DNA from: a virus
Lineage: Duplodnaviria; Heunggongvirae; Uroviricota; Caudoviricetes
Virus record (IMG/VR): IMGVR_UViG_3300029878_000054
Location: 1-9,756 of that record
Length of the DNA stretch: 9,756 bases
Direction: 5' to 3' (one strand)
Position numbers and translations under genes: made by a program. The notes beneath the pieces are model-generated. The model had not been told where the DNA came from, made no database searches, and saw only the letters and a program-made list of their open reading frames with translations. This document shows positions 1 to 9,756 of the stretch, one piece after another (the first letter of the stretch is position 1; each line of letters starts with the position of its first letter).

Positions 1-160
1 ATAGTGCGTTCACCGAATACGTGCGCAACAACCGTCTTCCGGAGACTGTCATACGCGTAAAACAGCCAGCGCTGGCGCGATTTAGCCCCGACATAGCCCC
101 ACTGTTCGTCCATTTCCGCGCAGACGATGACGTCACTGCCCGGCTGTATGCGCGAGGTTA
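1..160 (-). mobile_element. insB: IS1 internal fragment (partial insB, running off the left edge; IS1 left end and insA absent)
   Basis: Minus-strand translation of 1-132 reads [48 protein letters not shown], which I recognise as the N-proximal part of IS1 InsB. The IS1-like DNA stops near 160, where Ala-rich repeat DNA begins, so the element is broken internally rather than at an inverted repeat. Confidence 0.8.
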
Positions 161-393
161 GCGTTTGTTTCGCTGCTCTTTGCTGCTGCCTCGCTATTTT
201 TCGCGTTGGTTTCTGATTTTTTGGCTGCTGTCGCGGAGTTTGCCGATGCAGTTTGTGAGTCTGCTGCCGCCTGTGCGCTGTTATCCGCATTCGTCTCAGA
301 CGTTTTTGCGGCCTTCGCGGAATTTCCTGCCGCCGTTGCCGAGGAAGCTGCACTAACCCTGCGTCTGTCAGCACAGTAAAACCCGGTGTGCAT
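133..393 (-). pseudogene. Chimeric remnant ORF: side-tail-fibre-like Ala/Ser/Thr/Asn-rich repeat fragment whose last codons and stop are supplied out of frame by IS1 DNA
   Basis: 86-aa ORF with SETNA-type repeats ([20 protein letters not shown] ... [21 protein letters not shown]) resembling the shaft repeats of lambdoid Stf-family tail fibres. The N-terminus ([13 protein letters not shown]) is implausible and the frame closes 4 codons upstream. The C-terminal NLAHTAGQ-stop lies inside the IS1 fragment. Confidence 0.4.
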
Positions 394-668
394 CGTTTTT
401 GATTATTCCCGCACACTCACGCAGAAGGAATTCCCCGTCGGGCTACGGTCATGGTTAATGCGGGAATACGGCGACGATACAGCGCAGCTAAAAGGGTAAT
501 AGACGGATAGACCGGTTTATTTCATTCCACAGGATTCTGAGTGTCCCCAACTTCCTCCAATAGTCTGAGCGTACACCTATATAGTTTTAATTTTCATCAA
601 TCCATTTAACTATCGTTTAATTGTTGTCACATAGGATTCTGCCGTTTTTAACAATGCAGGATAATAAG

Positions 669-962
669 ATGAAAAAAATGTTGTTTTCTGCCGCTCTGGC
701 AATGCTTATTACAGGATGTGCTCAACAGACGTTTACTGTTGGAAACAAACCGACAGCAGTAACACCAAAGGAAACCATCACCCATCACTTCTTCGTTTCG
801 GGAATTGGACAGGAGAAAACTGTCGATGCAGCCAAAATTTGTGGCGGCGCAGAAAATGTTGTTAAAACAGAAACCCAGCAAACATTCGTAAATGGATTGC
901 TCGGTTTTATTACTTTAGGCATTTATACTCCGCTGGAAGCGCGTGTGTATTGCTCACAATAA
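669..962 (+). CDS. borD: Bor-family outer-membrane lipoprotein (lambda Bor / serum-resistance lipoprotein homolog), 97 aa
   Basis: MKKMLFSAALAMLITGC... has a signal peptide with lipobox ITGC and matches lambda Bor almost along its length. AGGA lies 7 nt upstream of the ATG at 669. The ORF-track start at 621 is a TTG extension and is not used. Confidence 0.9.
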   Translation: MKKMLFSAALAMLITGCAQQTFTVGNKPTAVTPKETITHHFFVSGIGQEKTVDAAKICGGAENVVKTETQQTFVNGLLGFITLGIYTPLEARVYCSQ

Positions 963-972
963 TTGCATGAGT

Positions 973-990
973 TGCCCATCGATATGGGCA
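973..990. terminator. Hairpin between convergent bor and Rz (stem TGCCCAT / ATGGGCA, 4-nt loop); possible weak bidirectional terminator
   Basis: 7-bp perfect inverted repeat seen directly in the 31-bp gap between the bor stop (962) and the Rz/Rz1 stop (994). No U-tract on either side, hence low confidence. Confidence 0.3.
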
Positions 991-993
991 GCT

Positions 994-1455
994 CTATCTG
1001 CACTGCTCATTAATATACTTCTGGGTTCCTTCCAGTTGTTTTTGCATAGTGATCAGCCTCTCTCTGAGGGTGAAATAATCCCGTTCAGCGGTGTCTGCCA
1101 GTCGGGGGGAGGCTGCATTATCCACGCCGGAGGCGGTGGTGGCTTCACGCACTGACTGACAGACTGCTTTGATGTGCAACCGACGACGACCAGCGGCAAC
1201 ATCATCACGCAGAGCATCATTTTCAGCTTTCGCATCAGCTAACTCCTTCGTGTATTTTGCATCGAGCGCAGCAACATCACGCTGACGCATCTGCATGTCA
1301 GTAATTGCCGCGTTCGCCAGCTTCAGTTCTCTGGCATTTTTGTCGCGCTGGGCTTTGTAGGTAATGGCGTTATCACGGTAATGATTAACAGCCCATGACA
1401 GGCCGACGATGATGCAGATAACCAGAGCGGAGATAATCGCGGTTACTCTGTTCAT
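994..1455 (-). CDS. rzpD: Rz-type i-spanin (inner-membrane spanin subunit), 153 aa
   Basis: N-terminal TM helix ([18 protein letters not shown]) followed by a charged coiled-coil-like region; near-identical to DLP12 RzpD as I recall it. The ATG at 1455 overlaps the endolysin stop (ATGA arrangement). The ORF-track start at 1467 is GTG. Confidence 0.85.
1053..1235 (-). CDS. rzoD: Rz1-type o-spanin (outer-membrane lipoprotein), 60 aa, embedded in the +1 frame of Rz
   Basis: [20 protein letters not shown]... has a signal peptide with lipobox VVGC and a proline-rich mature part ([15 protein letters not shown]); it lies wholly inside Rz in another frame, the classic Rz/Rz1 arrangement. Confidence 0.8.
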
Positions 1456-1949
1456 TGCTGACCCCACAAACAGATTTCACGCTCAATCTCACGACGAGTC
1501 ATGAGACCTTTCCATTGCTTACCGCCAGCATATGTCCAGCGACGTAGCTGATCACATGCGCCTTTGATATCGCCCTGGTTTATTTTGCGAAGAAGCGTCG
1601 ATGTTCTGAAATTGCCAGCACCCACGTTGTAAACGAATGAGTAAAGAGCGCCGCGCATTGTTTCCGGTATATCGACTTTGATGTACGGGTTAATTTGTCT
1701 GGCGACCGTGGCAAGGTCTTTATTCAGGAGGGCTTTGCATTCTGCTTTGGTATACGTTTTACCGAGCATGATGTCTTTTCCTGTATGCCCGTGACATACA
1801 GTCCATACACCAACAATATCTTTGTATGGTATGTAGCTGACACCTTCCAGACCATCGTTACCACTTGGGCCAGTAATTAACACTGATGCTATAGCAATTG
1901 CTCCGCCACCAATAGCAGCAGCAACGGCTTTTCGTAATGATGGAGGCAT
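1452..1949 (-). CDS. rrrD: SAR endolysin (phage lysozyme, T4-lysozyme-like, phage 21 R type), 165 aa
   Basis: N-terminal signal-arrest-release segment ([20 protein letters not shown]) followed by a lysozyme core ([23 protein letters not shown]); the start ATG shares one nucleotide with the holin stop. Confidence 0.9.
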
Positions 1950-2164
1950 TATTCACCTCTCGCAGCCTTGCGCTTATCTTCTTTAATCTTGAAATAAAGG
2001 TTTGTCAGGTACGTCAGCAGGCCAAATACCAGGCTACCCAGCACACCTATTGCTGCCCACTGTGAGGGCGTGACTTTATCGAGCAGCTGTAAAAACCAGT
2101 AACCGGCACTACCTGCTGAGGTGCCATAGGCGACACCCGTTGTTAACTTATCCATGGATTTCAT
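1949..2164 (-). CDS. essD: Pinholin (phage 21 S-type class II holin) with dual start motif MKSMDK (antiholin/holin), 71 aa
   Basis: [71 protein letters not shown] has two TM segments and a charged C-tail. GAGGTGG lies 7-13 nt upstream of the ATG at 2164. The ORF-track start at 2209 is rejected. Confidence 0.85.
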
Positions 2165-2753
2165 AACCCCACCTCGCAGACAAAGCGGGTGTAAATTGAG
2201 GGAATACAACGTATCGCAAAAAAGCAGAAACGTAACAGACTCGGAGTCAGTGAATAACTCAGGTATTGAGTTATCAGCTAATATCGAGACTCAAAAAATG
2301 GAAAAACCAGCTCGACGGCGGGTTTAAGCTGTGTGACGAAGTAACCACTCTTAACAGCATAACCAATTTTTTACGTACGTAAACCACTGAATGATATTTA
2401 TGAGAATGCTACTGAGTGTTCAAAACACCACCACAAATACATAAGAAAACCTCAACAAATAACCAACAAATAATTTCCAGTGTTATTTTTAGCCGATTTA
2501 AATTGAACCTTCAAATTATAGAGCGCTTATAAATAACAGCCGTTAATATAAATTGGCTAATAGATTTATTTTTATTCAGCCAAGAGCTATGAATAGGATT
2601 CGATAGAAAAAAGTTCAGATAAAAATAGAGATCTACTTCACAAATCAAACGAGAAACCAAAACTTACATCTTGAAATAATCACATTGATTAGATGAATAT
2701 TTATCGCGCAGTGACATCATTTTTTAATAATAGTTCAAAAAAAAGGGCTCACG

Positions 2754-3851
2754 ATGAAAAAATTAACAGTGGCAATTTCTGCTGTAGCTGCATCAGTACT
2801 GATGGCGATGTCTGCTCAGGCAGCTGAAATTTATAATAAAGACAGTAACAAGCTGGATCTGTACGGGAAAGTTAATGCCAAGCACTACTTCTCCTCTAAT
2901 GATGCAGATGATGGTGATACTACTTATGCCCGTCTTGGCTTCAAAGGTGAAACCCAAATCAACGATCAACTGACTGGTTTCGGTCAGTGGGAATATGAAT
3001 TCAAAGGCAACCGCGCTGAATCTCAAGGTTCCTCCAAAGACAAAACCCGTCTTGCATTTGCAGGCCTGAAATTCGGTGACTACGGCTCAATCGATTACGG
3101 CCGTAACTACGGTGTAGCATACGACATCGGTGCGTGGACTGACGTTCTGCCAGAATTCGGTGGCGATACCTGGACCCAAACAGATGTGTTCATGACTGGT
3201 CGCACCACTGGTGTTGCAACCTATCGTAACAACGACTTCTTTGGTCTGGTTGATGGTCTGAACTTTGCTGCTCAGTACCAAGGCAAAAACGATCGTAGCG
3301 ATTTCGATAACTACACTGAAGGTAACGGTGATGGCTTCGGTTTCTCTGCTACCTATGAATACGAAGGATTCGGTATCGGTGCAACTTATGCGAAATCTGA
3401 TCGTACCGACACTCAAGTTAATGCAGGGAAAGTTCTTCCTGAAGTATTTGCTTCCGGTAAAAATGCAGAAGTTTGGGCCGCAGGTCTGAAATATGACGCT
3501 AACAACATTTACCTGGCCACTACCTATTCTGAAACCCAGAATATGACTGTATTTGCTGATCACTTCGTTGCTAATAAAGCCCAAAACTTCGAAGCTGTTG
3601 CACAATATCAGTTCGATTTCGGTCTGCGTCCGTCCGTTGCTTACCTGCAATCTAAAGGTAAAGATCTTGGAGTATGGGGCGATCAGGACTTAGTCAAATA
3701 TGTTGATGTAGGTGCAACCTATTACTTCAACAAAAATATGTCTACTTTCGTTGATTACAAAATCAACCTGCTTGACAAAAATGACTTCACTAAAGCACTC
3801 GGTGTAAGCACTGATGACATCGTTGCTGTAGGTCTGGTTTACCAGTTCTAA
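2754..3851 (+). CDS. nmpC: General-diffusion outer-membrane porin, NmpC/OmpD type (OmpC/OmpF/PhoE family), 365 aa, apparently intact
   Basis: Signal peptide ending AQA, then AEIYNKD; porin-family sequence throughout; C-terminal ...VGLVYQF with terminal Phe. High-expression-style codon usage. It sits between Q and the lysis cassette on the opposite strand, as nmpC does in DLP12. Confidence 0.93.
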
Positions 3852-3860
3852 TCTGATTAC

Positions 3861-3901
3861 GAAAAAGATATGTTGCGGGAGGCGTTGCCTCCCCAACATA
3901 T
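3861..3901 (-). terminator. Rho-independent terminator for minus-strand (late, Q-side) transcription; candidate tR'-like terminator
   Basis: On the minus strand this is ATATGTTGGGGAGGCAACGCCTCCCGCAACATAT followed by CTTTTTC: a ~15-bp stem with one bulge and a 3-nt loop, then a U-tract. It is read directly from the sequence. Confidence 0.5.
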
Positions 3902-3988
3902 AAGTGGCTCCCTCAAGCCACTTCCTTTAGAAGCACAACCTTGCTTCTAACTATATAAACCTTCTGTTATATATTACCCTTTATTTTT

Positions 3989-4016
3989 GGGGGCGTCTCA
4001 ACGCCCCATTTTTAAT
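3989..4016 (+). terminator. Rho-independent terminator for plus-strand transcription (likely the distal terminator of the porin gene)
   Basis: GGGGGCGT-ctca-ACGCCCC followed by ATTTTTAAT on the plus strand; hairpins at 3902-3928 (AAGTGGCT/AGCCACTT then CCTTT) and 3927-3950 (TTAGAAGCA/TGCTTCTAA) lie just upstream. Confidence 0.5.
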
Positions 4017-4040
4017 AATTTTTAGTAAACAATTGGCATA

Positions 4041-4424
4041 TTAATTAGAGTTATTAACAACGATATCCATCTCTAACCGGATATCTAATGCCATTAACAT
4101 CCCTTCAATTATGCCCTCAGCCTTCTGTAACCTTTTCCCGATATAACCATCAGAGCAGCAATGCTTACCTGCCAGTGACATGAATGTCATACCGACTACA
4201 TAATAATCTACTAATAAATCGTGCAAATCGCTGTTGTTCTTTTTCAGACGGGCCATGCACCCGCAAATGATCATCGCGTCATCGTCACAACATTGCGGGC
4301 GAGATTTTACTTTTGAAGGAATTAATCCCTTAAAACCGGCGGCAATGGACGACCAGGTCACATCTTCATGATTATTAGCCGCCCACGCTCCCCAACGCTC
4401 AAGAACCATCTGAATATCACGCAT
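4041..4424 (-). CDS. quuD: Late-gene antiterminator Q (DLP12 QuuD type), 127 aa
   Basis: [24 protein letters not shown]...[18 protein letters not shown]...HCCSDGY matches QuuD as I remember it, including the Cys-rich zinc-binding region. Start chosen at MRDIQ (4424) rather than the ORF-track start at 4439. Confidence 0.85.
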
Positions 4425-4509
4425 CAACTTACTCCACAAAAATCAGACCAGAACGCCAATCACAAGCAAAAATCAACAAAACAGTATTAGTTGATTGTTA
4501 TCTCTGACT

Positions 4510-4632
4510 TCATACTCCTGCTCCTGTCAGGGTTTTGGCGTAATTCTTCAGTATTCGGTAATCGGTCAAAACAGAACCGGGGAAACGATATAAGCGCAGA
4601 TGCCCCCAGCGGTGGCGAAGAAGTTCTGCCAT
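4510..4632 (-). CDS. Small ORF (40 aa) between rusA and Q, at the position of ylcG in DLP12
   Basis: Hand translation of the minus strand gives MAELLRHRWGHLRLYRFPGSVLTDYRILKNYAKTLTGAGV-stop, starting 14 nt after the rusA stop. It is below the ORF-track size cut-off. No strong SD; identity to YlcG not verified. Confidence 0.4.
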   Translation of the reverse strand: MAELLRHRWGHLRLYRFPGSVLTDYRILKNYAKTLTGAGV

Positions 4633-4646
4633 ATAAAACTCAAACA

Positions 4647-5009
4647 TCATTCATTCCCCATTTCGGTGATGGTCAGTTCCAGCCTCCCACCTTTGGTAAC
4701 GGGCATCTTCACAACGCGGTAATCAACGACCTGAGCATCATCCAGCCAGAAACCTGCTTTAGTGAGTGCGTCAAAAGCGGCTTTTTGCAGATTATCCAGG
4801 TCACGGCGACGGCGATCCGGCATGTGGCACTCAATGCGGATTTTCACAGGCATAGCCAGGCCGATATCCAGCATTGCGTTTTTAATGATTCGGGCGACGT
4901 TATCGCGGTATGCCTGCCCCTCTGCGCTGATGTGCGTGCGCCCGCGATTATGGCGGTAATAGCGATTATTGCTCGGAGGCCAGGGTAATGTGATGCTGTA
5001 GGTATTCAC
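4647..5009 (-). CDS. rusA: Crossover-junction endodeoxyribonuclease RusA (Holliday-junction resolvase), 120 aa
   Basis: [26 protein letters not shown]...[51 protein letters not shown] is essentially the K-12 RusA sequence as I recall it; the start overlaps the ybcO stop (ATGA). Confidence 0.95.
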
Positions 5010-5296
5010 GCCTTAATAACCCCCTCTTTCAGCCAGATAACCTGTGTTCTCGCCATACCTTCCAGCGCACATTCTTTTGCATATGCAGCATCGACAAAAT
5101 GTGTGCGGCGGTCGATTTCGTCGTGGCAGGCAGAACATGCAATGGTGGCAATCAGGTCTGGCGGTTTGATACCGGTACCGCACAATCCAGCCAGCCGGAT
5201 ATGTGCCAGTACAGACGTTTCAGGGTTGCCATTACATACGCCAGGGATTCTTACCTGGCATTCCCGACCACGCGCTGCTTTTCTCAAATCAGCCAT
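5006..5296 (-). CDS. ybcO: YbcO-family protein (DUF1364, Cys-rich putative nuclease of lambdoid nin regions), 96 aa
   Basis: [62 protein letters not shown]... with a strong SD (AGGAGG) before the ATG at 5296; the ORF-track extension to 5335 uses a TTG and is rejected. Confidence 0.85.
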
Positions 5297-5459
5297 GACT
5301 CCTCCTTGCTGCCAGTCGCAACCATTTTTTATCAACCAAGCTGGCGGTATATCCGAGCAGTGTTGGTATTTCGGAAGGCTTCAGCTCAGGTTTACGCTTA
5401 CGACGATTTGGTACTCTGTAAATGTGCCCGTTCATGACACGAATAAGCGGTGTAGCCAT
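5289..5459 (-). CDS. ninE: NinE-family small protein, 56 aa
   Basis: Hand translation gives [56 protein letters not shown]-stop, with the basic KRKP...WLR pattern of lambda NinE. The start shares one nucleotide with the ybcN stop and the end overlaps the ybcO start by 8 nt. Not in the ORF track because of its size. Confidence 0.6.
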   Translation of the reverse strand: MATPLIRVMNGHIYRVPNRRKRKPELKPSEIPTLLGYTASLVDKKWLRLAARRSHG

Positions 5460-5914
5460 TACGCCTCCTGCTTGTCGCGCAGCAGCTGGAACTCGCAGCT
5501 CTGCGGAATAGTCAGGTGGCAGCCAATATTCATCGCCCAGGCTTCAACCTTACACAGGAAGACATACATCTCTCCGGTATCAAGATCGGAGGTATGGCGT
5601 AACGACTGGATAGTAGTGATTTCGCCGGTTACGACATCAACCAAGTCCTTGGTTTCATAACCGAGGTATGTGTGTTTGAGTGCATCTTTTACCCATACTG
5701 CAGTAGCGAACGTTTTCCCCCTGCTGATGAGGTACTCGCTGATTTCGCTGTACCACATGTGGCTGAGTGCATTCTGGGAAAGACTGCGTCTCTCGCGCCA
5801 CGGTTTAAGCACCATGCGAAAGCATTTTCCGTCCTCCAGATAAGGCTGGATCTGCTGACCGATAGTGGTGAAGTTACCGCGATGTAATTTGATGCCGTCT
5901 TGTGGGAGGTTCAC
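5459..5914 (-). CDS. ybcN: NinB/Orf-family recombination protein (DLP12 YbcN-like), 151 aa, GTG start
   Basis: Contains the [12 protein letters not shown] motif characteristic of NinB-family proteins; GGAGGTG sits 4-10 nt upstream of the GTG at 5914-5912. Confidence 0.85.
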
Positions 5915-6012
5915 GCTTCACCTCCGCAGAGGTCAAACGTTGGATGCAAAGAATCGCAGGTGCATTTCTGCATCTGTGAAGGGAGAAGAGAGTTTAGATT
6001 GTATGTGCGCAT
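5911..6012 (-). CDS. Small ORF (33 aa) upstream of and overlapping the ybcN start, at the position of ylcH in DLP12
   Basis: Minus-strand hand translation gives [33 protein letters not shown]-stop; its TGA overlaps the ybcN GTG (GTGA). Length equals K-12 ylcH (33 aa) as I recall, but the sequence identity is not verified. Confidence 0.35.
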
Positions 6013-6301
6013 AAACGTCCCCGTTTAGCGCAGAAGTCACCGGAGGTGTTCAGGCTCCGATGCGATAATTATGACGATCTGATTTTGGAAAATCAAATTT
6101 AAGTAACCGCCAACCTATAATTTTCAATCAAGATTTCATTTATTAGCTCACTCATATAAAAATACATTACAACGTTTTTATCTCTTAATTTATGAAGGCA
6201 ACCTCGAAAAACAAATCACCCAAACACTTTAAAACAATTAAACCCGTTTAAAATTACAATTACATTTAGAAAGCAAACTTTCAAAAGATGTGATGATACA
6301 A

Positions 6302-6330
6302 TTGCATAAAACAAATACTTGGGGTAAAAT
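6302..6330 (+). promoter_or_regulatory. Candidate sigma70 promoter for the AT-rich cargo operon (TTGCAT-N17-TAAAAT)
   Basis: -35-like TTGCAT at 6302-6307 and -10-like TAAAAT at 6325-6330 with 17-nt spacing, about 100 nt upstream of the first ATG of the island. AT-rich DNA generates such matches easily, hence low confidence. Confidence 0.3.
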
Positions 6331-6436
6331 ATAAAAATAACACTCCCAGCTTAACGCTAGGTGGCGGTAGCGTGTATTTTTCAAATACGCCTATCACCCC
6401 ATTATGTTTTTTCATATTTAAGAGATTGGTTATATA

Positions 6437-6811
6437 ATGGAACTAATATACACTTATATCCACAATTATAAAGGTTTAAATAAGCTGTCCCTCCCCACCT
6501 CAAGTAAATTTACCTTTAGCCATAAAGGTAACGTCCTTACAATTGCTAAGAAAGATTTAAGTCGTGACTATTATAGCAATATTCCCTGTACATTAATTTT
6601 AGGGAAAAATGGTGTTGGAAAGTCATCAATTTTAGATTTCATTAGTAGCTTTATTTACGATTTTGAAGGTAGCGGTTATAGCATCTGGAATGAAAATGAT
6701 AAACTTATAATTATCACAAGCAATTGCAAACCTCCTGTAATATTATCCAAAATGCAAACGGAACTGATTGATAATAATGAACATTTTTTAGAAGAAACAA
6801 AATCAATCTAA
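6437..6811 (+). CDS. N-terminal portion of an ABC/AAA15-type ATPase (Walker A only); probably the 5' half of a gene split by a frameshift
   Basis: P-loop LILGKNGVGKSSILD at residues ~53-67; no Walker B, signature or H-loop motif in this ORF. The frame ends at 6811, 31 nt after the downstream frame opens. Confidence 0.7.
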   Translation: MELIYTYIHNYKGLNKLSLPTSSKFTFSHKGNVLTIAKKDLSRDYYSNIPCTLILGKNGVGKSSILDFISSFIYDFEGSGYSIWNENDKLIIITSNCKPPVILSKMQTELIDNNEHFLEETKSI

Positions 6812-6843
6812 TAAAGATAAATAACACAATCGACCTCAAAAGT

Positions 6844-8223
6844 ATGTTAGTTGGACAAAAAAAGAAAAAAAACGATTCGATTTCTAAAGATTTATCACTG
6901 TCATATTTTTTGCAAGGCAGTAAAACACGCAATAAGAAATTACTCAAGCAATTAATTTCATTTTCAGACCACAGTTCATGGGCTAAAGACAATTTATCAA
7001 GACTTAATACTAAATTTCAATTTGAAATAGAAAACTCACCAGTATATAAAATAAATTCTATTATAAAAAACAATGATATTGGTGACAAAGGACTTTTTGG
7101 AGCTATTGAATACTTTTTTGATACGTTGAATGATAGAATTAAAAACAATAAACTCCCTAGATATATTGAACGTGATTTAGATTCTTTAGGTATTTCACTT
7201 GTGGATATACTCAATCATGGGATAGATTACGATGAAGATTTTATTATTAGCATTATTTTTAACAAAGAAAGATCATTAAATTTCCTCGCAACCTTTTCAT
7301 ATCACAAAATAATTTACTTGATGCTTTTGCCTGCAATAACATGGCATTTACTCAAGACATCAAAAATCCCTAAAGACATATGTGAGACTGTTTATTTATT
7401 TTGCTTGTGTCGCGCGTATCTTGAAGAAAAAGATCCAGCAAAAACTATATTAGAGACTTTAGATGAATTTAACGTTAATGTTAAATTTCAGTCAAAAATA
7501 GAAATGTTATCTGAACATATCTCCGACATTATAGGTAATATAGCTGATATATTAGAAAACACAGCAAGAGACCCAGTTGATAGTTTATCTTTCACAGTTG
7601 AAGAACCAAAGCAGATTATGGAGTTAATAAGATTAGTTGATAGGTTACCAAATGGCGTATCATCGCGATTTAAGTATGGTTGGGATTCACTTAGTTCAGG
7701 AGAGTTTGCAAAATTAAACCTTTTCAATCAACTTTATGATTCTATAGAACATAGCAACAGCAAAAATATTATAATATTATTAGATGAGTGTGATTTATAT
7801 CTACACCCTGAATGGCAACGAGTTATTTTTTCAGAAATTATAGATTTAACATTAAGATATAAACAAAGTAAAAATATTCAATTAGTATTTACAACTCACT
7901 CCCCTATACTCGCAAGTGATTTTTTGCCATCAGATATAATATATCTTGAAAGAGATCATAATCAAGGAACCTATACTAAGAAAGTAGAGTTTGGTTTCGG
8001 AGCAACCATATCAGAATTATATATAAATGGTTTTTTTATTGATGCTACAATAGGACAGCACGCACATAATTATCTAAACTCAATAATAAAAAACTCAGAT
8101 GACGGTAATTTAAATAAACATCAAAAAACCATACTATCACAAATTAAAAATAAACTTCTCATAAATCTTATTGATCTGAAGTTAAACAAAAACAATGATA
8201 AAACAGATTCTTTTGAGAAATGA
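6844..8223 (+). CDS. C-terminal portion of the same ABC/AAA15-type ATPase (signature, Walker B and H-loop motifs); a fused model 6437..8223 gives ~595 aa if one T is added to the T6 run at 6784-6789
   Basis: LSSGE signature-like motif, Walker B IIILLDECDLYLHP and H-loop VFTTHSP; no Walker A. The frame is open upstream to 6781 with no ATG before 6844. Confidence 0.7.
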   Translation: MLVGQKKKKNDSISKDLSLSYFLQGSKTRNKKLLKQLISFSDHSSWAKDNLSRLNTKFQFEIENSPVYKINSIIKNNDIGDKGLFGAIEYFFDTLNDRIKNNKLPRYIERDLDSLGISLVDILNHGIDYDEDFIISIIFNKERSLNFLATFSYHKIIYLMLLPAITWHLLKTSKIPKDICETVYLFCLCRAYLEEKDPAKTILETLDEFNVNVKFQSKIEMLSEHISDIIGNIADILENTARDPVDSLSFTVEEPKQIMELIRLVDRLPNGVSSRFKYGWDSLSSGEFAKLNLFNQLYDSIEHSNSKNIIILLDECDLYLHPEWQRVIFSEIIDLTLRYKQSKNIQLVFTTHSPILASDFLPSDIIYLERDHNQGTYTKKVEFGFGATISELYINGFFIDATIGQHAHNYLNSIIKNSDDGNLNKHQKTILSQIKNKLLINLIDLKLNKNNDKTDSFEK

Positions 8224-8741
8224 GTAAAAAAATGATAAAAATAAACAAAGACTTCAATGTTGATGTAAAAATATCCTTTTCTAAAATAGTAAGCAAAGTT
8301 AATAAACGCGTGAAGCAGAGGAAGTTACTGAACATTACTCCCGATGAAGTAGAGTTTCTAAATACAATCAACAAAAAAACTATCAGAAAATTAGTTTTTT
8401 CAAAACCCAAACGATTAAAAAATATAATCATCAAAATATACAACAAACACCCAATTGTGTGTGAGTACTATTCTCCTGATTATTTTTTAAGGCACTTAAA
8501 TTTACAACCATTAACAAACCTACAATTACCTTTAAAAACAAAAGAAAACAAAAAAATAGTTTATAATGAACTAGCACATGCCATCAAAATAATCACATCT
8601 TTCTCTCAAACTACACAAAGCCTAATACTTGAGGATATATTAAATACACATTTCTCACCACAAAAATTATCTAGTTTAAGAGATAAGATTCTTAATCTTA
8701 TAAGTATCAAGAATGGTGGTCCTAAAGGAAAATACCATTAA
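8220..8741 (+). CDS. Hypothetical lysine-rich basic protein, 173 aa, unknown function
   Basis: ORF whose ATG overlaps the stop of the ATPase ORF (ATGA); no recognisable catalytic motif. An alternative start at 8232 (MIKINK) is possible. Same extreme AT-richness as its neighbours. Confidence 0.5.
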   Translation: MSKKMIKINKDFNVDVKISFSKIVSKVNKRVKQRKLLNITPDEVEFLNTINKKTIRKLVFSKPKRLKNIIIKIYNKHPIVCEYYSPDYFLRHLNLQPLTNLQLPLKTKENKKIVYNELAHAIKIITSFSQTTQSLILEDILNTHFSPQKLSSLRDKILNLISIKNGGPKGKYH

Positions 8742-9423
8742 GTTATTTCCATCATGGGTTAAAAATATTTCTGAAATATTTAAATACTCACTTATTGATA
8801 GAGAAACAGCGTATCAATTGAACAGTTTTTTAGACATTAGCATATGCCCATATTGCAACAGTGAAGAAATTGAACAAGTAGAAGACCATACAGGTACTAG
8901 CTACAGGCCAGCATTTGATCATTTCATACCTAAGTACAAATATCCGTTGATCTCCTTTAGTTTATTTAACTTAATTCCTAGCTGCACTAAATGCAATAGT
9001 ACTTATAAAAAATCACTCGATCCGATCATGAGCCCATTTTCAAATCCTTTTCTTGAAGGTGTAAATGACACTCAGCTTTTTGATTTTAATTATGACATTG
9101 ATTATATATATAGAGATGGCCAAATTGATGATGATCACATTCAAATTATACTAAAAAAACAAAAAAACAACATCGATGAAAACATGGCTAAACTTAGCAT
9201 AGAGAATAGATATAATTCACGCATTAGAAAGAAAGCAGTTAGATTAATTGCAAAGAGAGCATTTGATCTAAAAGCTTATGAAGAAAATTTCATTATAGAA
9301 CCAACTCTTTTCGCTACTTTCGGTTACGAGACTAACATTGAGCCGCTAAAGCATATGCATAAAAAACTTACTCAAGATGCAATATTAGTATTCTGCAACA
9401 AACAAGTACCGTTAATTGAATAA
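8713..9423 (+). CDS. HNH (His-Me finger) endonuclease-domain protein, 236 aa
   Basis: CPYC ... (22 aa) ... DHFIP ... NLIPS ... CTKCN, i.e. the CxxC / DH / N / CxxC arrangement typical of HNH nucleases, in the N-terminal half. The start overlaps the preceding ORF by 29 nt. Confidence 0.7.
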   Translation: MVVLKENTIKLFPSWVKNISEIFKYSLIDRETAYQLNSFLDISICPYCNSEEIEQVEDHTGTSYRPAFDHFIPKYKYPLISFSLFNLIPSCTKCNSTYKKSLDPIMSPFSNPFLEGVNDTQLFDFNYDIDYIYRDGQIDDDHIQIILKKQKNNIDENMAKLSIENRYNSRIRKKAVRLIAKRAFDLKAYEENFIIEPTLFATFGYETNIEPLKHMHKKLTQDAILVFCNKQVPLIE

Positions 9424-9680
9424 GTAAAATGAAAGGATATCGAGCTATATAATGTAGTATGTCGAAAAATCAAACAGAAAAAAATCGAATAGTTACACTG
9501 TGCTCGGTGCTGTCTTCATGCTCCGTTCCTCTCGTAGGCTAGTAAAATTCGCGTCATCACCGGGCTTGGGGGCCATCATCGAAAATCTGATTGGTGCTTT
9601 TGTGCCAAGAGATTTCCTCTTCGGTTACCAATCGGTAGTGAATCGTTCGCTAGATATTGCTGACATCGACCAGATCGCCC

Positions 9681-9756
9681 TGATCTTACCCAGCAATAGT
9701 GGACACGCGGCTAAGTGAGTAAACTCTCAGTCAGAGGTGACTCACATGACAAAAAC
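9681..9756 (+). mobile_element. Left end of an IS3-type insertion sequence (terminal inverted repeat starting TGATCTTACCCAGCAATAGTGGACACGCGG), continuing off the right edge
   Basis: The sequence from 9681 matches what I recall as the IS3 left end, including the GAGGTGA SD and the ATG at 9736 that begins orfA (MTK...). Confidence 0.75.
9736..9756 (+). CDS. insE: IS3 OrfA (transposase N-terminal subunit), first 7 codons only (partial at window edge)
   Basis: ATG ACA AAA AC... preceded by GAGGTGA 8 nt upstream, consistent with the IS3 orfA start MTKTVS... Confidence 0.6.

Follow-up and report, generated by a model that had tools for sequence, protein, structure and literature searches.

The left end of a 9,756-nt stretch of prophage DNA (hereafter the window, meaning the whole stretch that was analysed) raises the question of how part of an insertion sequence came to lie against part of a tail-fibre gene beside bor, and whether anything at this place still functions. 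The sequence-only reading of this locus had described it as a rearrangement scar, in which decay of a tail-fibre gene was combined with truncation of IS1. Our analysis supported that description, and comparison with related strains added a second junction, between the tail-fibre DNA and the segment upstream of bor, which we place at 354-355. We conclude that the region is a non-functional scar at the late end of a DLP12-type prophage, and that it was very probably left by two successive microhomology-mediated (illegitimate) deletions.

The window represents the late half of a DLP12-type lambdoid prophage, with the late direction on the minus strand. Its genes are, in series, ybcN, ninE, ybcO, rusA, quuD, an nmpC-type porin gene (plus strand), essD, rrrD, rzpD/Rz1 and bor/iss (plus strand). 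Together with the nin-region genes, the late order Q–(porin)–holin–lysozyme–Rz/Rz1–bor identifies the window as a remnant of the DLP12 type. The series ybcN-ninE-ybcO-rusA-quuD-nmpC-essD-rrrD-rzpD-borD is shared with DLP12 at the argU site of K-12, and window positions 615-6097 are 96-97% identical to that prophage. The closest complete relatives were the argU-site prophage of ETEC TW10828 and others, to which positions 354-9682 are 99.1% identical; in TW10828 a tRNA-Arg gene lies at the int end, and the window stops short of this end. Left of position 354, these relatives hold the full ylcI-cos-nohD…J-lom-stf-tfa series. The statement in the sequence-only reading that K-12 has ybcV/ybcW next to borD was accurate, whereas in the TW10828-type relatives it is ylcI-cos-nohD that adjoins bor. 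A match to BL21(RP) was dropped as a relative, the region there being a jumble of unrelated fragments.

Two further differences from K-12 were seen within the window. The nmpC/ompC-like porin gene is intact (2754-3851, 365 aa), whereas the K-12 copy is interrupted by IS5. Positions 6437-9423 carry a two-gene candidate anti-phage cassette, PDC-M62 (a Septu-like AAA ATPase and an HNH-type protein), in the place occupied by ybcM/ylcH in K-12 DLP12. TW10828 has intact versions of both cassette genes (595 aa and 397 aa), whereas in the window each is frameshifted, by -1 near 6783 and by -2 near 8722, and these splits recur identically in several independent assemblies.

The features at the left end of the window are the following.

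1 to 160, minus strand: IS1 remnant, equal to IS1 nt 488-329, with 159/160 identity to the IS1A copy of strain Res13
158 to 160: junction A, TTA, a 3-bp microhomology common to IS1 (insA stop TAA, nt 329-331) and stf
158 to 355, minus strand: internal fragment of a lambdoid side-tail-fibre (stf) gene, with 198/198 identity to L004 3001-3198 and to many E. coli stf genes
133 to 393, minus strand: 86-aa chimeric ORF with its start ATG at 393, from the list of open reading frames and frame arithmetic
354 to 355: junction B, TA, a 2-bp microhomology joining stf to the bor-upstream segment
356 to 668: conserved non-coding segment upstream of bor, 99.8-100% identical to many E. coli prophages from 354 onward
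669 to 962, plus strand: intact bor/iss lipoprotein gene (PF06291 Lambda_Bor, E=6e-31; iss in the annotation of relatives)

We resolved both junctions to the base by a three-way alignment of the window, IS1 and stf. One minus-strand frame of positions 1-160 translates to an InsB peptide, the same one that the sequence-only reading had quoted for the minus strand of 1-132. Identity to IS1 stops at window position 160, where the window continues GCGTTTG and IS1 has CCGACTG. The break falls at nt 329-331, in the TAA stop of insA, which agrees with the earlier placing of the end of IS1 near 160, inside the element and not at a terminus. At the other junction, the last position identical to stf is 355, and the match to the DNA that lies upstream of bor in intact DLP12-type prophages starts at 354. 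Only 2-3 bp of microhomology are present at both junctions, and neither of them lies at an IS1 terminus. The underlying matches are far beyond chance, with E-values of 1e-80 to 1e-101.

The sequence-only reading had proposed that the rest of IS1 be sought to the left of the window. Looking up the 459-aa split ATPase ORF of the window led to L147, L148, L149 and L150, from which the DNA left of the window was recovered. In L148 (GCA_052183795.1, an NCBI contig of 301.7 kb), which shows 1 mismatch to the window in 9680 bases, the IS1 remnant extends 279 bp further left to an intact IRR, giving a total of 440 bp (2878-3317). The distance from this normal IRR to the start of an AraC-family regulator gene is 206 bp. 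Identity to IS1 is high in all of this DNA (159/160 over nt 329-488, and about 99% over the 440 bp in L147 and L148). The remnant is thus like an IS1A-type element in its nucleotide sequence, its InsB frame and, in the near-identical L148, its intact IRR, but it keeps the right 440 bp only. The deleted left 328 bp comprise IRL, insA (from nt 56) and the A6C frameshift motif (about nt 307-313). A complete IS1 is a 768-bp element with two terminal inverted repeats, whereas here the IRL side is replaced by stf DNA, and the combination of insA, A6C frameshift site and insB' that specifies the InsAB' transposase is broken. A target-site duplication of 8-10 bp is also absent, there being a single terminus, and the two flanks, stf and the DNA upstream of the AraC gene, are unrelated to each other. 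Since IRL, insA and the A6C site are gone, the remnant can neither make transposase nor transpose, and the IS1 part of the scar is a remnant, not a mobile element.

Beyond IS1, positions 1-2877 of L148 contain the AraC-family regulator, xdhC-like genes and fragments of an rve_3 integrase core and of LysR. The corresponding end in K-12 is occupied by appY-ompT-envY, and Res13 matches the L148 flank at 99.8%. Other IS1 insertions were seen in an AT-rich stretch just upstream of bor (window 639-668; L002 3293-4059; L008 1-111), which attracts this element. Strain E1535 has a full IS1 there with a roughly 10-bp duplication of window 639-648. In GCA_013352005.1, which also bears the scar, a further IS1 stops at window 666/667, with 2 bases left to the bor ATG.

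The middle part of the scar matched stf genes annotated as 'prophage tail fiber N-terminal domain-containing protein' without a single difference (158-355, E=3e-98). In strain AR_0077, where stf is placed after J and lom as in lambda, the fragment corresponds to codons 259-323 of a 1160-aa gene, extended by one base (the last) of codon 258 and by two of codon 324. It encodes Ala-rich AAK(T/S/K)SETNA repeats, which are also found in the shaft of lambda Stf. The earlier attribution of this SETNA-type DNA to a side-tail-fibre gene was therefore correct; it is an internal piece of such a gene and not an intact one. The parent protein has a PF08400 N-terminal domain (residues 1-134) and an S74 chaperone domain (1017-1068), and the fragment falls between the two. 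Thus, compared with lambdoid Stf proteins of the prophage tail fiber N-terminal domain/S74 family, codons 259-323 are identical, but the fragment begins at residue 259 and is devoid of the PF08400 tail-attachment domain. The distal receptor-binding region, the C-terminal S74 domain and tfa are absent from the window and present in the parent allele, L004, and in a metagenome contig, L140. A fragment without the PF08400 domain and without the distal receptor-binding and S74 part cannot form a fibre.

On the other side of junction B, the bor-upstream segment supplies the minus-strand ATG at 393 that opens the chimeric ORF. In intact relatives this segment runs leftwards into ylcI, cos and nohD, with cosN 450 bp away from the breakpoint. 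The bor/iss gene at 669-962 marks the prophage side of the scar.

An identical scar was present in at least seven other assemblies, from isolates and metagenomes (L006, L007, L008, L147, L148, L149 and L150). As these assemblies are independent, the scar did not arise as an error of assembly. Contigs built from short reads usually end 50-110 bases into the IS1 part, which is the behaviour expected of a repeat. Neither junction was found in 5,426 complete E. coli genomes, the exact junction-A pattern had no match in GTDB representatives or JGI metagenomes, and a search of the literature returned nothing specific to this locus. The scar is a genuine, inherited, lineage-specific allele.

How, then, did the scar arise? 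The sequence-only reading had argued that at least two events were needed, and L140 bears this out. This contig was found by a pattern consisting of the bor-upstream sequence with any non-reference base before TA. It has junction B, the same to the base, has no IS1 junction, and its stf continues from codon 259 to the natural end of the gene. At L140 2996-6037 the bor-upstream ATG is fused in frame to stf codon 259, giving a 1013-aa ORF that corresponds to an N-terminally truncated tail fibre with S74 and without the tail-attachment domain. A tfa fragment and then prophage cargo genes follow stf. The left 5998 bases of L140 match E. coli prophage ends at 97.8%, and this match stops exactly at junction B. 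A state with junction B and the rest of stf attached, as a two-step history would predict, therefore exists, which supports two successive deletions. About 5 differences from the window in 158-210, and an stf that diverges leftwards from the L004 type towards another distal allele, make L140 a cousin of the intermediate and not a direct ancestor. In this metagenome contig, 535 bp of unrelated DNA replace bor and the 3' part of Rz, so that the contig might be a chimera.

From these comparisons we infer the following order and mechanism. In deletion 1, a TA that lies between ylcI and bor, 47 nt from the ylcI stop, would have been joined to a TA at stf codon 258/259, with loss of everything from ylcI and cos through the terminase, head and tail genes to J, lom and the first 258 codons of stf. 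Judged from an intact relative, its size would be roughly 21 kb; the same interval measures 23.6 kb in TW10828, which has an extra IS66. Deletion 2 would have joined stf codon 323/324 to IS1 nt 329-331 through the shared TTA/TAA, using an IS1 copy that, at the far end of the prophage, lay upstream of the AraC-family regulator gene; the original position of this copy relative to stf is one that we infer. This step would have cost the prophage the remainder of stf, tfa and any DNA farther on, together with the left 328 bp of IS1. In its present form the prophage is unable to package DNA or to build particles, and what is left is an immobile IS1 remnant, a 198-bp scrap of stf and an 86-aa ORF created by accident. 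The stf fragment retains the orientation that it has in the intact prophage relative to the late operon, and this, together with its 100% identity, is as a simple deletion predicts. A comparable event is seen in K-12, where DLP12 also lost structural genes by a microhomology deletion, aaaD'/tfaD', with a 3-bp junction (shared TAT).

We considered two other origins for the pair of junctions. The scar could have been made by the IS1 transposase, through IS1-mediated adjacent deletion or another by-product of transposition. IS1 does abut the stf scrap, and the element is frequent at this locus: E1535 and GCA_013352005.1 carry full copies upstream of bor, and Res13 has another close to the AraC gene. 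However, transposase-mediated deletions begin exactly at the IS terminus and leave the element whole, whereas junction A lies inside the element (nt 329-331) with the IRL side gone, and no IS is present at junction B. With neither junction at an IS1 terminus, adjacent deletion does not explain the scar, and we regard a transposase origin as very improbable. The internal break also bears out the earlier statement that the IS1 junction is not a normal transposition end. Alternatively, one complex rearrangement could have produced both junctions at once, with the 198-bp stf piece as filler DNA; a short piece between two microhomology junctions is what may be seen at a repaired break. The occurrence in L140 of junction B alone, with the remaining stf contiguous, and the orientation of the stf piece, which is that predicted by nested deletions, make such a single event highly unlikely. 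Two successive deletions remain the preferred explanation for the scar.

We then asked whether the 86-aa ORF has a function. According to the sequence-only reading, it ran from the repeat DNA into IS1 and stopped there. The ORF is a chimera that stops in IS1, as stated, but it opens in the bor-upstream DNA, which supplies the ATG and the first 13 codons, and not in the repeats. Residues 14-78 are Stf residues 259-323 in the native stf frame, and residues 79-86 and the stop codon are provided by IS1, in a frame that is neither that of insA nor that of insB. No Pfam family matched the ORF. The exact 86-aa protein was called on only 3 short contigs and was absent from the protein collection searched. 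Direct reading of window 394-420 revealed no Shine-Dalgarno sequence at a normal distance from the ATG. We take the ORF to be an accidental chimera, presumably without function. It appears extremely unlikely that the ORF functions as a new gene and encodes a small, domesticated protein of Stf origin, expressed from the residual late operon. The ORF does lie in the sense direction of Q/pR' late transcription and is exactly conserved in the lineage. This conservation, however, is due to the sequences being nearly clonal (at most 3 differences in 9.7 kb) and not to selection, and the lack of a family match and of a normally spaced Shine-Dalgarno sequence, an ORF tail of out-of-frame IS1 and the fact that gene callers skip the ORF in L147 and L148 all speak against a gene.

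The bor-side end of deletion 1 was found to recur. Five deletions with different partners end, to the nucleotide, at the same TA immediately before ACCCTGCG (window 354-355, equal to L001 4001-4002). The partners are stf codon 258 in the window lineage and L140, tfa codon 44 in the Res13 strains (L003), nohD codon 15 in MLI104K2 (L011), stf codon 907 of another allele in an IMG/VR contig (L113), and nohD codon 154 in a metagenome contig (L139). Each partner brings its own TA at the crossover, and all five deletions remove cos. Three of the five partners came from a pattern able to see junctions at this base only; Res13 and MLI104K2 were found without this bias. Res13 has the AraC flank in common with the window lineage but carries a different, full IS1 copy 191 bp away, which indicates that the Res13 and window loci decayed independently. 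Each of the five junctions keeps the reading frame set by the ATG at 393, a pattern that is only weakly significant (p about 0.04) given that 52% of the TA dinucleotides in the late genes are in that codon phase. The breakpoint forms the centre of a short palindrome (AGGGTAACCCT, containing GGTAACC).

Several accounts of this breakpoint were tried and rejected. A mobile-element end was rejected for lack of a terminal inverted repeat: a search of the window for the terminal 21 nt in inverted form, allowing up to 3 mismatches, gave no copy, and no convincing terminal repeat was seen. Cleavage at cos was rejected from the position of cosN (L001 3549-3560), and a TA-flanked cassette site was rejected from the K-12 ybcV-ybcW module, which replaces L001 3971-4025 and is not inserted at the TA. 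Hairpin-driven slippage was discarded since the predicted folding of the DNA was not stronger than that of shuffled sequence (z = 0.4-0.7). A search for empty sites gave none, the ylcI-side context always leading into the bor segment, bar one IS3-family insertion. Nearby homology boundaries (L001 3970, 4025, 4034 and 4197) were rejected as deletions, as they are natural mosaic joints to other packaging modules. Several of these mosaic boundaries cluster within about 65 bp on both sides of the breakpoint (L001 3970-4034, plus 4197; window about 323-387, and 550), and the joints lead to ybcV-ybcW, to a TonB-like gene with another terminase, and to an HNH/P27-type terminase module.

The recurrence raises the possibility that junction B was formed by a site-specific process at the TA before ACCCTGCG, acting through a recombinase, a nuclease or a transposon-end-like site. 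The use of exactly this TA with five partners, each with its own TA, and the failure to see the reverse product, with the ylcI side kept, in 125 loci are consistent with such a process. Against it, three of the five partners derive from the position-restricted pattern search, the site has no terminal inverted repeat and no unusual DNA structure, it is not cos, the extra module of K-12 is not at this TA, and no enzyme candidate was identified for the palindrome site. On balance a site-specific origin of junction B seems unlikely. The more specific proposal, that TA 354/355 (the TA before ACCCTGCGTCTGTCAGC) is a site-specific, one-ended deletion hot spot of DLP12-type prophages, is doubtful as well. 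It would have the retained bor-upstream sequence recognised and joined repeatedly to a TA in the downstream late genes, with loss of cos and packaging; candidate agents might be a serine-recombinase-like crossover with a TA core, a nuclease acting at the GGTAACC palindrome, or a transposon-end-like site acting in trans. Illegitimate deletion stays our preferred reading for junction B too, although, given the recurrent bor-side breakpoint, deletion 1 may perhaps not have been a purely random illegitimate event.

In K-12 DLP12, ybcV-ybcW-ylcI-nohD remain beside borD and the breaks lie in terminase and tfa, whereas in the window everything from ylcI through stf codon 258 is gone. Prophage decay and domestication are reportedly pervasive in enterobacteria (for example Bobay, Touchon and Rocha 2014). 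The window shows no substantive difference from that general pattern, in that packaging and structural genes were lost and cargo (bor/iss and the porin) was kept. The scar is an ordinary, lineage-specific instance of well-known prophage decay by deletion and IS activity, and its pieces were already known.

Taken together, the scar shows by what route a DLP12-type prophage was inactivated in one commensal E. coli lineage, in which bor/iss, the nmpC-type porin and the lysis cassette were nevertheless retained. The two lineage-specific junctions of the scar could serve as typing markers. If the bor-side breakpoint were site-specific, it would have a bearing on the way in which lambdoid prophages are fixed in host chromosomes, and a hot spot at this position would mean that prophages can be domesticated along a directed path instead of through random decay.
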